Assembly: GCA_964613385.1 (NCBI GenBank)
Contig: CAZTGZ010000001.1
Coordinates: forward strand, 105,836-169,835
Source of the DNA: an uncultured Chitinophagaceae bacterium
GTDB lineage: Bacteria > Bacteroidota > Bacteroidia > NS11-12g > UBA9320
Reading direction: 5' to 3'
DNA length: 64,000 nt
Shown: positions 17,188-21,268 of the stretch, piece by piece
Position numbering within the stretch: position 1 is the first letter of the stretch
How the letters are laid out: every line of letters starts with the position of its first letter
The notes under the pieces: model-generated
What the model was told of the DNA's origin: nothing
Seen by the model: only the letters and a program-made list of their open reading frames with translations
Database searches by the model: none
Made by a program: the position numbers and the translations under genes

Positions 17188-17850
17188 TCAAGAATTTAAA
17201 AACACCGGTTTCAGATAATCCGGCTCGAAATAGGCGATGCTTTCTAGAGCTTTTTGCTCCCATTTTTGAGCGGCATCCAATCCCATAAATCTCGCATCCG
17301 CGCTTATTTCCGGCCTATAATCTGCATTTGGAAAAACCGCTTGCTCTTGCCATTTTCCTGCGCCGTCACCCAGAAAAACAATCCTGTTATTGCGAAATTC
17401 TTCAAATGATGCGCCATCCAAAATCAAAGGTCCGGGGGAAGATGTCACCGTCATATCCGGCTGATAAACACCGCAATACACTTCATTCCGGCGAGCATCT
17501 ATCATGGGAATCAGAAAATCATACGTTTCCGGATTTCCAATGGCTCTGACCATAATTTCAAGTGAGGAAATGGCAATCAGAGGAATTTGTAAACCATGAC
17601 ATAATCCCTTGGCAGCACCGGCACCAATGCGCAATCCCGTATAAGAACCTGGTCCTGCACTCAGGGCTATAGCGACCAAATCTTCTTTGACAAGTCCTGC
17701 TTTCTCCAATGCATCCTGTATTGCCGATAATATTACCCGGGCATGATCATTCGGTCCGGGATGTGACACATACGACAACATTTCCAAACCGTTAAATACT
17801 GCAACAGAGCAGTGTTTTCCGCTGGTTTCAAGGCATAGTATCGGATTCAT
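17188..17850 (-). CDS. tsaB: tRNA threonylcarbamoyladenosine biosynthesis protein TsaB (YeaZ-like)
   Basis: 220 aa ORF with N-terminus MNPILCLETSGKHCSVAVF (the TsaB/Kae1-fold 'ILALDTSTE.CSVAL' pattern) and an internal GPGSYTGLRIG motif. Confidence 0.8.
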   Translation of the reverse strand: MNPILCLETSGKHCSVAVFNGLEMLSYVSHPGPNDHARVILSAIQDALEKAGLVKEDLVAIALSAGPGSYTGLRIGAGAAKGLCHGLQIPLIAISSLEIMVRAIGNPETYDFLIPMIDARRNEVYCGVYQPDMTVTSSPGPLILDGASFEEFRNNRIVFLGDGAGKWQEQAVFPNADYRPEISADARFMGLDAAQKWEQKALESIAYFEPDYLKPVFLNS

Positions 17851-17852
17851 TT

Positions 17853-18314
17853 CTAATATCTGATACCCAGTTTTCTGAAAATAAAATGAAGCAGCCAGGC
17901 CGGACCAATAAGCAGGAATTGAAGATCCTGAAAAAAGGAGGGCTTTTTACCTTCGATATGATGACCCCAGAATTGACCTATCCAGGCGGCTGTAAATATG
18001 GATAAACACAAGGCCCACAACATAACTCCAGCATCTAATAGCCTCATGCTAAGTACTATACAAAATGACATAATCGCCGCAAAGGCTAAAAACATCATTT
18101 TAGACAATGAAAAGTAAAACCAAAGCGCGGGAATGGCGATTACACTGGCCCAATTGAACCAGATACTCTTTTCAGCGAATGGGAAAGGCAGGCTGCACAG
18201 TAAACCAATGATGCTGTAAAAAATGGCCGGAACACAAATCCAATGGACCAATTTATTGGTTGGGTTTTGATGACTTTCCCCATAGGCTTCCAGCCAATTT
18301 TCTAAGGTTCTCAT
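17853..18314 (-). CDS. DUF962 (Mpo1-like) membrane protein
   Basis: 153 aa ORF. N-terminus MRTLENWLEAYGESHQNPTNKLVHWICVPAIF resembles the DUF962/Mpo1 family (predicted Fe-dependent dioxygenase-like membrane proteins). Four TM segments. Confidence 0.55.
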   Translation of the reverse strand: MRTLENWLEAYGESHQNPTNKLVHWICVPAIFYSIIGLLCSLPFPFAEKSIWFNWASVIAIPALWFYFSLSKMMFLAFAAIMSFCIVLSMRLLDAGVMLWALCLSIFTAAWIGQFWGHHIEGKKPSFFQDLQFLLIGPAWLLHFIFRKLGIRY

Positions 18315-18315
18315 A

Positions 18316-18807: not shown

Positions 18808-19595
18808 ATCAGATTCTTTGCTTTAGCCACCATTTCCGCGATATCCAGCACTTGCACACTGTCTTCTTTTTCAGCATGTTTTACGCCATCTCTCAACATA
18901 GTCATACAAAATGGGCAATTGGATGCGACTATGGCAGCACCTGTTCCCAGAGCCTCAGAAGAGCGTTCAATATTGATTTCTCCTTTTCCTTTTTCTGCTT
19001 CCTTAAACATCTGAGCCCCGCCAGCACCGCAACAAAGTCCATTTTTTCTGCATCGCTTCATCTCCACCAATTCAACATCCAGCGCTTCCAATACTTTTCG
19101 GGGCGCTTCATATACATCGTTCGCCCTGCCCAGATAGCAGCTGTCGTGATACGTGATTTTTTTGCCTTTAAATGCGCCTCCCTCAAACTTGATTTTGCCC
19201 TGATCGATCAATTCCTGCAATAGTTGCGTATGGTGGACCACTTCGTAGGTTCCGCCTAAATCAGGATACTCATTTTTAAGGGTATTGAAACAATGCGGAC
19301 AAGTAGTTACAATTTTTTTGATTTCGTAGCCATTCAACACGGCAATGTTATTGGCTGCCTGCATTTGAAACAGGAATTCATTGCCGGCTCTTCTGGCAGG
19401 GTCACCGGTGCAGCTTTCTTCTTGTCCCAGTATGGCGAACGAGATTCCGCATTCCTGGAGTATGGATGCGAATGCTTTAGTGATTTTTTTGGCCCGGTCA
19501 TCAAAACTTCCGGCGCAACCCACCCAGAATAGCACTTCGGGGCTCTCACCCCTGGCAATCATATCAGACAATATGGGTACTTTTAATTCTATCAT
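18804..19595 (-). CDS. (Fe-S)-binding protein with two cysteine-rich CCG domains (HdrD/DsrK/GlpC C-terminal-like)
   Basis: 263 aa protein with two CCG-type Cys clusters: WVGCAGSFDDR...TTCPHCFNTLKNEY and DSCYLGRAND...GLCCGAGGAQMF...SNCPFCMTML. Confidence 0.75.
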   Translation of the reverse strand: MIELKVPILSDMIARGESPEVLFWVGCAGSFDDRAKKITKAFASILQECGISFAILGQEESCTGDPARRAGNEFLFQMQAANNIAVLNGYEIKKIVTTCPHCFNTLKNEYPDLGGTYEVVHHTQLLQELIDQGKIKFEGGAFKGKKITYHDSCYLGRANDVYEAPRKVLEALDVELVEMKRCRKNGLCCGAGGAQMFKEAEKGKGEINIERSSEALGTGAAIVASNCPFCMTMLRDGVKHAEKEDSVQVLDIAEMVAKAKNLI

Positions 19596-19984
19596 AAGAA
19601 CAAATATTTTATCACCGATATCGAAGATACCAACAGGGCAATCATGCCCAGGATTTCTTCGTAAGGTTTGAGTTTGTGATTGTATTCAAGGATTTTTTCT
19701 CCGGTTTTGCCCGGAATGAGTTGTAGCACGATTCCGATTCCCTGAATCAATCCTAAGGCCAGCATCAGGCACAACTCCAGCATATAGGTAAGGGAGAAAA
19801 AGAAGTTAAAAACAAGATCAAGGAAACGACCGAGGGCTAAAACAAGCAACACGAAACCAATCAGCCCCCTGAAACGATTGGCCTGAATGGCGAAATTTCT
19901 GAACTGAGGAAATCTCACCCCAATCAGGTTGGCAGTTGCGGCAACTCCGGATAAAAACAAAACGATATGTAAAAGCCAGAACAT
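19592..19984 (-). CDS. small hydrophobic membrane protein (about 4 TM), function unknown
   Basis: 130 aa ORF, strongly hydrophobic. Its 4-nt start/stop overlaps with both neighbours fit membership of the Fe-S operon. Confidence 0.45.
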   Translation of the reverse strand: MFWLLHIVLFLSGVAATANLIGVRFPQFRNFAIQANRFRGLIGFVLLVLALGRFLDLVFNFFFSLTYMLELCLMLALGLIQGIGIVLQLIPGKTGEKILEYNHKLKPYEEILGMIALLVSSISVIKYLFL

Positions 19985-19993
19985 CGAAATGGC

Positions 19994-21268
19994 TTAATCA
20001 TTGCGCCAATTAGCCCGATCTGAAGGTGAGAAAGGCCAGGGAGCTCCATTATTCTCCAGATTTCCGAACATGTTATTCAAAGGTGTGGGAGCTGAGGATT
20101 CTTCCATTACGAGATATTGTCTCATTCCGTGAATGATTTCAACCGGACTGATATTGACCGGGCAAATTTCGACACAGGCATTGCAGGTTGTGCAGGCCCA
20201 AAGTTCTTCGGCGCTGATCAGGCTATGGAGGTTGGTCCCGTCCGCGATGTCAAGTCCCTGATCTAACCGATTGCCAACTTGCTCAACCCGGTCTCTGGTT
20301 TGCATCATAATGTTGCGCGGACTGAGTTTTTTACCGGTGAGATTGGCAGGACAAACGGATGTACATCGACCGCATTCTGTGCACGTGTAAGCGTCCAGCA
20401 GGTTTTTCCAACTCAGATCCTGAATGTCCTTTACACCAAATCCTGTTGGGGGTTCATAGCCTTGAGGCGGTGTGGCAGATGGATCCATCATCAAAGATAC
20501 TTCAGTGGTTATGGATGCATCGGCGGCAACATAACCTTTGGGTTCCAGACGACTATACCAGGTGTTTGGAAATGCGAGTATGATGTGCAGGTGTTTGCTA
20601 AAGGGCAAATAATTCAGAAACAGGAATATGCCTATGATATGGGCCCACCAGGCAATGCGTTCAAATAGATGAAGTTGAGATTCACTCATACCTCCTAAAA
20701 GTGGTGATAACCAGGAGCTTATGGGCATTGAAAAGCTATTCTGGAGTTGATGATCGGCAGCATTCATGAACAATAAGGCGCTCATGAGCACAGTTTCTAT
20801 CAGAAGGATGCTCACAGCGTCTTTCTGTGGCCAGCCGGCCAGTTCTGATCCGGATAAGCGCGGTACTTTAACAACAACTCGTCTAAACAGAAATACCAGA
20901 CAAGCCGCGAGTACTCCAAGGGCAAGGATTTCGAAGAAACCTATGACAACCCCGTAAAAAGATCCGAGCAAGGGCAACAGAATCCGGTGTTTATTTAATA
21001 GACCGTCTAGCAGAATTTCCAGCACCTCAAGGTTAATCAGAATAAAACCCGCATAAATGATCAGATGAAAAAATGCTGCCAGGGGTCTTGTTCCCATTTT
21101 TCCTTGACCCAGCGCCACTCTGGCCATAGTTTTCCAGCGGCGTCCCGGCTGATCGTTCATGTTTTTTTTCTTCCCGAGTAGAATATTTCGCCGAATGCGG
21201 GATGCATTTCTGGCAAAAAAATAGGTGGCAATACCAAGGGCAACAACAAAAACTATCTGCGATATCAT
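19994..21268 (-). CDS. fused membrane (cytochrome-b/NarI/HdrE-like) + 2x[4Fe-4S] ferredoxin-domain protein
   Basis: The N-terminal ~230 aa form 5-6 TM helices with spaced His residues (HLIIYAGF..., WWAHIIGIFLFLNYLPFSKHLHIILAF) as in di-heme b membrane anchors. The C-terminal half has two CxxCxxCxxxCP motifs (CTECGRCTSVCPA, CTTCNACVEICPV). Together with the downstream CCG protein this reconstitutes an HdrED/DsrMK-like unit. Confidence 0.75.
   Translation of the reverse strand: MISQIVFVVALGIATYFFARNASRIRRNILLGKKKNMNDQPGRRWKTMARVALGQGKMGTRPLAAFFHLIIYAGFILINLEVLEILLDGLLNKHRILLPLLGSFYGVVIGFFEILALGVLAACLVFLFRRVVVKVPRLSGSELAGWPQKDAVSILLIETVLMSALLFMNAADHQLQNSFSMPISSWLSPLLGGMSESQLHLFERIAWWAHIIGIFLFLNYLPFSKHLHIILAFPNTWYSRLEPKGYVAADASITTEVSLMMDPSATPPQGYEPPTGFGVKDIQDLSWKNLLDAYTCTECGRCTSVCPANLTGKKLSPRNIMMQTRDRVEQVGNRLDQGLDIADGTNLHSLISAEELWACTTCNACVEICPVNISPVEIIHGMRQYLVMEESSAPTPLNNMFGNLENNGAPWPFSPSDRANWRND

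Follow-up and report, generated by a model that had tools for sequence, protein, structure and literature searches.

The EtfD proteins are ETF:menaquinone oxidoreductases (EMO; ETF, electron transfer flavoprotein), a function that has been shown experimentally (PMC8593149; PMC13083937). As determined by cryo-electron microscopy, the structure of the Mycobacterium smegmatis enzyme (MsEtfD) displays a wire that starts at a linear [3Fe-4S] cluster and leads through a non-cubane [4Fe-4S] cluster and two cubane [4Fe-4S] clusters to heme b and then to menaquinone (PMC13083937). The structure of the Syntrophus aciditrophicus EMO (SaEMO) has been solved with ETF bound, and ETF docks on the NCB domain of this enzyme (bioRxiv 10.64898/2026.08.18.745454). 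Two homologues, FadF and DgcB, likewise have roles in ETF-linked catabolism, the former in β-oxidation in Bacillus subtilis and the latter in dimethylglycine catabolism in Pseudomonas aeruginosa (PMC13083937). Here we describe six open reading frames (ORFs), named g1 to g6 in transcription order, on the minus strand at positions 17188-21268 of a stretch of 64,000 nucleotides (the window) from contig CAZTGZ010000001.1 of an uncultured Chitinophagaceae bacterium. We propose, with a probability of roughly 70%, that g1 and g3 are the two parts of a split, Bacteroidota-type EtfD/EMO that passes electrons from ETF to menaquinone, with g4 as a conserved and uncharacterised third component.

The best solved match of both g1 and g3 is the same protein, the 1042-residue 'iron-sulfur-binding reductase' of PDB entry 9OJN (9ojn_A), which is EtfD from M. 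smegmatis. Residues 37-422 of g1 align with EtfD residues 48-475 (3.9e-40, 141.4 bits), and residues 3-257 of g3 align with EtfD residues 479-742 (1.9e-77, 263.7 bits). Jointly, g1 and g3 span EtfD residues 48-742 with no segment missing. The EtfD modules are divided over two polypeptides, and the cut is located at the linker around residues 476-478, between the ferredoxin and CCG parts. Identity to EtfD across phyla is 50.6% for g3, 33.9% for the transmembrane (TM) part and first Fer4 of g1, and 44.8% for the second Fer4 of g1.

The g1 protein comprises an N-terminal NarI-like cytochrome b domain and a cytoplasmic domain for two cubane [4Fe-4S] clusters (Fer4_9, 3.7e-12), and g3 comprises two CCG domains (PF02754, 2.4e-31, 108 bits). 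These profile searches bear out the domain anatomy given by a previous sequence-only reading of this locus, which had described a fused cytochrome b and di-cluster ferredoxin next to a separate two-CCG protein. In the AlphaFold2 model of g1 (pLDDT 76), TM helices cover approximately residues 1-29, 62-90, 103-133, 146-171 and 196-223; hydropathy gives four clear segments, to which the model adds TM V. A Foldseek search of the PDB with this model matched only 9ojn (E 1.4e-11, TMq 0.70, prob 1.00), the runner-up being NarI with an E value of about 2.

We transferred the ligand numbering of MsEtfD (PMC13083937) and SaEMO (bioRxiv 10.64898/2026.08.18.745454) to g1 and g3 by pairwise alignment, and conservation was scored in sets of homologues from Bacteroidota, 120 for g1 and 81 for g3. 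The predicted heme bP ligands of g1, His68 and His228 (H78/H241 in MsEtfD, H87/H251 in SaEMO), are invariant. So are His210, the third conserved His, in TM V (H223 and H233, respectively), which is the predicted distal site, and His94 and His226. Phe75 and Phe217 match the menaquinone contacts of MsEtfD, the first being invariant and the second present in 119 of the 120 sequences, while Arg130 and Arg301, which match heme-propionate contacts, do not vary. The first predicted cubane site is formed by Cys296, Cys299, Cys302 and Cys369 (MsEtfD C301/304/307/422) and the second by Cys306, Cys359, Cys362 and Cys365 (C311/412/415/418), all of them invariant. The predicted D1 site of g3 involves Cys27, Cys62, Cys99 and Cys102 (C503/C538/C581/C584), and its predicted D2 non-cubane [4Fe-4S] site involves Cys153, Cys188, Cys189, Cys227 and Cys230 together with His101 (C637/672/673/709/712 and H583); both sets are invariant. 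The first CCG motif reads C27-X34-C62-T63-X35-C99-XX-C102, with 'CT' where heterodisulfide reductase (Hdr) has CC, and appears to be of the linear [3Fe-4S] type found in MsEtfD. Position 63 (Thr539 in MsEtfD) is Thr in 88% of the homologues and otherwise Ser or Asn. With the exception of Arg150, all EtfD cofactor residues have counterparts in g1 and g3, which are 99-100% conserved.

The mycobacterial EtfD (Rv0338c / MSMEG_0690) has the same module order as g1 plus g3, with a five-TM cytochrome b, two cubane [4Fe-4S] clusters and two CCG domains. It has in common with g1 the heme bP His pair, the third His of TM V, the Phe pair and the eight cubane Cys, and with g3 the D1 'C...CT...CxxC' motif and the D2 set of five Cys and one His. 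However, the mycobacterial protein is a single chain whereas the Bacteroidota form consists of two, here with an unrelated gene for a 130-residue membrane protein between them. It also carries a disordered C-terminal tail of about 13-30 kDa with an AlphaFold3-predicted ETF contact (PMC13083937), which is absent from g3, and mycobacteria have no g4, a stand-alone partner specific to the Bacteroidota side of the comparison. SaEMO shares with the g1/g3 pair the three-domain design and with g1 the three TM His (H87, H251 and H233 for His68, His228 and His210), and it has no long disordered tail. Unlike the split g1/g3, it is a single 706-residue chain, with three hemes (the distal heme being a twin), a distal cluster of the [4Fe:5S] kind and reverse electron flow driven by proton motive force (pmf); the D1 motif of g3 is of the mycobacterial and not of the SaEMO type. 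FadF and DgcB belong to the same family but lack the D1-binding Cys (PMC13083937), whereas the Bacteroidota g3 retains all four.

More distant relatives are found among the methanogen HdrDE and HdrBC proteins, in which the cytochrome b, di-cluster and CCG modules have homologous counterparts in HdrE, HdrC and HdrB/HdrD, respectively. HdrDE is also a two-subunit enzyme, but its boundary separates the cytochrome b (HdrE) from Fer4 plus CCG (HdrD), whereas the g1/g3 boundary separates cytochrome b plus Fer4 from CCG. The membrane cytochrome b of DsrMK, HmeCD and TmcBC is a separate subunit, whereas it is fused to the ferredoxin domain in g1. Curated models all scored far under their cutoffs (bits/cutoff): TfrB 128/385, LdhH 117/800, GlpC 61/278, DsrK 41.7/400, TmcB 55.7/735, HmcF 47.4/750, HdrC 45.6/270, 39.6/350 and 37.2/160, and HdrB 26.9/345 and 19.4/450; the GlcF model gave a sub-threshold 21 bits for g3. 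The HdrED/DsrMK-like label of the sequence-only reading thus holds at the superfamily level, but the closest relative is EtfD, with 263.7 and 141.4 bits against 41.7 for DsrK and at most 27 for HdrB. The same homology agrees with the quinone link that this reading had drawn, and points to reduced ETF as the likely electron donor where it had left the substrate unknown. As for the 'di-heme' membrane anchor that it described, the His ligands are indeed conserved, but a number of two hemes is not established: with the same three conserved TM His, the mycobacterial enzyme carries one heme and the S. aciditrophicus EMO three (bioRxiv 10.64898/2026.08.18.745454).

The gene neighbourhood was surveyed by a one-genome-per-species contig scan, which yielded 80 loci (L001-L080) with g3 homologues of 68-76% identity from Chitinophagaceae, Flavobacteriaceae, Crocinitomicaceae, Cyclobacteriaceae, Sphingobacteriaceae and others. 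The g1 gene is immediately 5' of g3 in about 75 of the 80 loci, with a spacing of usually 10-150 nt, and g1-type proteins of about 425 residues gave more than 8000 matches of 62-70% identity, annotated as '(Fe-S)-binding protein' or 'HdrC/nitrate reductase gamma'. This near-universal adjacency makes the split form the norm in Bacteroidota, although it had at first been taken for unusual. Among the 75 loci with enough flank, g4 is directly 3' of g3 in 49 and elsewhere in the flank in 9, and a search started from g4 homologues recovered the g1-g3-g4 order on two of three long contigs. The 163-residue g4 protein had been suggested as a dedicated partner together with the DUF962 protein g5. The survey agrees with the former suggestion and contradicts the latter, as g2, g5 (DUF962) and g6 (TsaB) were found by tblastn at none of the 80 loci. 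A seven-gene order, g1-HAD-g2-g3-g4-DUF962-TsaB, is displayed only by the three closest metagenomic relatives (L081-L083, with g4 50-53% identical). The conserved module is g1-g3-g4, and DUF962 and TsaB are lineage-specific passengers. The genes g2, g5 and g6 would have joined the transcription unit only in the narrow lineage of this organism and would define no pathway.

The recurrent neighbours at the 80 loci (amidase_3, MlaD, LptD-like and OmpA) are envelope housekeeping genes, and no clue to an electron donor was found among them. No dsr, hmc or tmc genes were found in the window or at the surveyed loci. In about 20 of L001-L080, the g1-g3 gap measures 400-500 bp and contains a soluble HAD-like phosphatase; the presence of a g2-like gene in such gaps was considered and rejected, as they hold the phosphatase instead. 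This protein of about 140 residues (PF24694 LNS2_PITM1-3 / PF03767; motifs DIDGT and GKPRGGNYHWIDNH) is encoded at L081:1510-1932 and L083:1895-2314. It recurs between the EtfD halves in Bacteroidota, including the closest relatives, and is absent from the window; a connection with electron transfer is not obvious.

Beyond g1 and g3 themselves, g4 alone is a widely conserved member of the module. Its family includes 3189 representative clusters and has no match in Pfam or NCBIfam; the best 150 of these representatives are all stand-alone proteins, with no fusion to other domains. The invariant residues are W13, W40, H43, L47, D64, E65, S71-G-C73-S-I-D76 and W153. The structure model is confident and predicts a generic ferredoxin-like fold with no close solved relative, and no flavin- or nucleotide-binding family signature is recognisable in the protein. 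Because g4 is translationally coupled to g3 and often adjacent to it, it would most likely serve as an accessory subunit or as a factor for ETF docking or maturation, and we flag its family as a candidate new component of the EtfD electron-transfer system. Public records name some 160-residue members of this family 'ABC transporter ATPase', a name that is supported neither by the sequence and the model nor by searches with the family.

An electron path can be proposed from the homologous structures of M. smegmatis and S. aciditrophicus. ETF, reduced by acyl-CoA dehydrogenases in the breakdown of fatty acids and branched-chain amino acids, would dock on the cytoplasmic g3. Electrons would enter at the D2 non-cubane [4Fe-4S] cluster and/or the D1 cluster of linear-[3Fe-4S] type. 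The two cubane [4Fe-4S] clusters of g1 would then relay them to a heme b at His68/His228, with distal heme(s) at His210 as a possible further destination. Menaquinone would be reduced in the membrane and would feed the aerobic respiratory chain. The single chain of other phyla is cut at the linker here, so g1 and g3 would have to assemble as a heterodimer.

Several observations weigh against this assignment. Arg150 of MsEtfD was unmatched in the pairwise alignment with g1. In 17 of the 75 loci g4 is not in the flank, and it is possibly no obligate subunit. No etfAB or acyl-CoA dehydrogenase gene was found within ±7 kb in the 80 loci nor in the 64-kb window, so the link to ETF is drawn from homology. 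A literature search that did not cover Agne et al. 2021 (PNAS) returned no description of a Bacteroidota form of EtfD. As regards the distance to etfAB, the M. tuberculosis etfD (rv0338c) and etfBA (rv3029c/rv3028c) genes are also at separate loci, judged by their locus numbers (PMC8593149), and all Flavobacterium genomes contain EtfAB and butyryl-CoA dehydrogenase, with the acceptor unnamed (PMC10655711). The window itself encodes a protein matching 3-hydroxyacyl-CoA dehydrogenase (Table 1), which we count as support for the EtfD assignment. Together with ORFs matching acetyl-CoA synthetase and polyprenyl synthetase, it is compatible with acyl-CoA metabolism and isoprenoid-quinone synthesis; the three are unlinked to the operon.

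Aerobic Bacteroidota have a major part in the degradation of organic matter, and no paper that we found names the enzyme that passes electrons from ETF to their menaquinone. Assigning a widespread '(Fe-S)-binding protein' gene pair to EtfD/EMO would fill this gap. The recently discovered motif of linear-[3Fe-4S] type would thereby gain a phylum that the structural papers do not list. Neither the split architecture nor the g4 partner nor the occurrence of this motif in Bacteroidota is described in the papers found, the distribution study of Agne et al. being outside this comparison. On this assignment, the enzyme tolerates a cut at the linker, which should be helpful for expressing the soluble half.

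A more specific version of the proposal, possible but on the doubtful side, is that Bacteroidota use a three-component EtfD with g4 as a new and obligate subunit. It would be either an adaptor for ETF docking, in place of the mycobacterial disordered tail, or would carry or mature the unusual linear or non-cubane clusters. Its invariant site would be formed by His43, Asp64, Glu65, Cys73 and Asp76. Distal heme(s) would be retained by the invariant periplasm-side residues His210 and His94, so that menaquinone reduction would be pmf-assisted as in syntrophs, but in aerobes, and g2 would be a fourth subunit in this lineage.

In another reading, which we find unlikely, an EtfD-like wire would be served by a partner other than ETF, such as g4 itself or another flavoprotein dehydrogenase, or would run in reverse, from menaquinol to ETF or enoyl-CoA. 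The conserved and translationally coupled g4, whose constellation of invariant His, Asp, Glu and Cys could bind a metal or cofactor, and the fact that etfAB is never nearby would suit a different partner, as would the fact that some proteins of the family are linked to other donors, DgcB of dimethylglycine catabolism being one. But g4 shows neither a flavin- or nucleotide-binding signature nor a Pfam match, its predicted fold is a generic one, and it is not adjacent to g3 in about a third of the loci. EMO has been proposed to be bidirectional, with reverse flow in crotonate-grown syntrophs (PMC8805022). In addition, the invariant His210 and His94 on the periplasmic side would fit the retention of distal heme(s), which the pmf-coupled enzyme of S. 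aciditrophicus has. The surveyed loci, however, are from Flavobacteriales, Cytophagales, Chitinophagales and Sphingobacteriales, for which forward flow from ETF through menaquinone to O2 is the simple expectation. Members of these orders are largely aerobic.

We consider it quite improbable that g1 and g3 form a quinol-linked HdrD/DsrK-type reductase of an unknown small molecule, for instance a disulfide or thiol, in a dedicated pathway with the DUF962 and 163-residue proteins, as the sequence-only reading had suggested. The CCG domain is the catalytic module of heterodisulfide reductases, and the weak HdrC and HdrB matches reflect a real superfamily kinship. Furthermore, all six genes lie close together, and for g2 to g6 this tight arrangement is kept in the close relatives. 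Yet Hdr carries two complete, solvent-open CX(31-39)CCX(35-36)CXXC catalytic motifs, whereas in g3 Thr63 replaces the second Cys of the first motif and His101 caps the second cluster, a feature of the non-catalytic EtfD, whose clusters are solvent-shielded. The EtfD authors argued from the 'C-T' motif and the His cap that the clusters are electron-transfer centres and not a heterodisulfide-reducing active site (PMC13083937), and these same features in g3 disfavour an active site of the heterodisulfide or small-molecule type. The Hdr, Dsr, Tmc and Hmc models give 19-56 bits against cutoffs that reach 345-750, while EtfD gives 264 bits. Finally, DUF962 is a neighbour in none of the 80 diverse loci, and the operon also contains TsaB, a housekeeping protein. 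The operon thus probably belongs more to core respiration than to a special small-molecule pathway, so that, for this window, a supposed novel pathway becomes mostly ordinary core metabolism.

We give hardly any credence to a redox sensor or regulatory module, or to the Fe-S subunit of a GlcF-, LutA-, GlpC- or LdhH-like dehydrogenase with its flavoprotein encoded elsewhere: the g3 matches to LdhH (117 bits), GlpC (61) and GlcF (21) and the regulatory role given to the DUF224 protein DrpB in Thermus (PMC6282519) speak for it, but these scores are far under the curated cutoffs, the dehydrogenase systems have no fused NarI-like cytochrome b, DrpA is a small periplasmic DUF2249 protein and DrpB a 273-residue protein with no predicted TM helix and no g1-like subunit beside it (PMC6282519), and full-length colinearity is found with EtfD only. 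Thermus DrpAB was also rejected as an analogue of the split, as DrpA is a DUF2249 protein and not a cytochrome b/ferredoxin protein (PMC6282519).

The remaining three genes of the operon are of different kinds. The g2 protein has no match in Pfam or NCBIfam and no conserved His or Cys, and a search of 5.8 billion proteins returned two clusters only. L081 and L083 have ORFs in the corresponding position with 47-51% identity to g2, which is a four-helix protein conserved within that lineage and possibly an accessory membrane subunit. The identification of g5 as DUF962/Mpo1-like and of g6 as TsaB, both made previously, is supported by scores above the cutoffs. Residues 1-148 of g5 match PF06127 (68.6 bits for a cutoff of 24, 5.3e-19); its dioxygenase role is putative, and it sits 3' of g4 in L081-L083. 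Over its full length, g6 matches the equivalog model TIGR03725 (149.4 bits for a cutoff of 69.3, 1.4e-43), and it occupies the same position in L081-L083. TsaB is the dimerisation subunit of the tRNA t6A37 threonylcarbamoyltransferase complex, a housekeeping function. Its presence in the operon means that operon membership here implies no shared function.

All six ORFs were confirmed at the positions previously given, and none of them is a chance ORF, since each has homologues elsewhere. Their junctions were read directly from the sequence. Overlaps of 4 nt (ATGA), which had been reported for the first three junctions, are found at g2-g3 and g3-g4, but the g1-g2 junction is a gap (TAA, 9 nt, ATG). 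The short gaps reported further downstream are confirmed, with 1 nt at g4-g5 and 2 nt at g5-g6. The GC content of the operon genes is uniform, at 41.6-46.7% compared with 43.5% for the window. The tRNA-Phe gene on the opposite strand, the sole match of an Rfam scan, is separated from the ATG of g1 by 150 bp, as had been noted, and is immediately followed by a terminator-like hairpin.

Table 1. Position of the g1-g6 genes and of other features in the window.
Feature	Position	Strand	Length	Description
g1	19994-21268	minus	424 aa	N-terminal half of the proposed split EtfD/EMO-type oxidoreductase
g2	19592-19984	minus	130 aa	Small four-helix membrane protein between both proposed EtfD halves
g3	18804-19595	minus	263 aa	C-terminal half of the proposed split EtfD/EMO; two-CCG, non-cubane-cluster domain
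g4	18316-18807	minus	163 aa	Soluble protein, uncharacterised Bacteroidota family
g5	17853-18314	minus	153 aa	Mpo1-like/DUF962 four-helix membrane protein
g6	17188-17850	minus	220 aa	TsaB, operon end
Candidate operon promoter TAGGTTTG	21285-21292	minus		TAnnTTTG match 17 nt 5' of g1 ATG; consensus match only
tRNA-Phe(GAA)	21419-21492	plus		tRNA gene
Terminator-like hairpin	21505-21541	plus		16 pairs, then T-run
NuoE/NuoF fusion and molybdopterin enzyme	12780-17180	plus	555 aa, then 908 aa	Molybdopterin enzyme with N-terminal 2Fe-2S/NuoG-type domain
Pirin-family protein	11536-12747	plus	403 aa	GTG start; about 100 residues before Pirin domain
ORF	21614-22669	minus		No Pfam match at E <= 1e-5; N-terminal hydrophobic, signal-like segment
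ORF	22704-23246	minus		No Pfam match at E <= 1e-5; N-terminal hydrophobic, signal-like segment
ORF	4283-5455	plus		No Pfam match at E <= 1e-5
ORF	6215-6751	plus		No Pfam match at E <= 1e-5
ORF	42577-43422	plus		3-hydroxyacyl-CoA dehydrogenase match
ORF	25782-27689	minus		Acetyl-CoA synthetase match
ORF	51296-52270	minus		Polyprenyl synthetase match

A candidate promoter precedes g1 (Table 1) and matches TAnnTTTG, the -7 box of Bacteroidota (Bacteroidetes) promoters. On the minus strand of 17188-21300, the only other match is inside g1 (20492-20499), and no such box is found ahead of g2, g3, g4, g5 or g6. Judging from the junction spacing and this single match ahead of g1, it is plausible that g1 to g6 form one transcription unit. 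Window-wide, TAnnTTTG is not enriched, with 51 copies found for 58 expected. Many copies are located about 5-25 nt 5' of gene starts, including one before tRNA-Phe; examples are at 860, 2941, 10613(-), 12755, 21285(-), 21396, 29285, 46576, 49759, 54589(-) and 62803(-). A scan for sigma-70 promoters and terminators gave background-level results, with models that are ill-suited to Bacteroidota. At the other end of the operon, the stop codon of g6 (tsaB) is 7 nt from the stop codon of the convergent FdhA-like gene for the molybdopterin enzyme, which leaves no room for an intergenic terminator.

In the window outside the operon, the NuoE/NuoF-fusion protein and the molybdopterin enzyme look like a soluble NAD-linked formate dehydrogenase pair. 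Four sizeable ORFs have no Pfam match, and two of them begin with a signal-like segment (Table 1). The extra N-terminus of the pirin-family protein may be an over-extended start or an added region. [quoted passage not shown]

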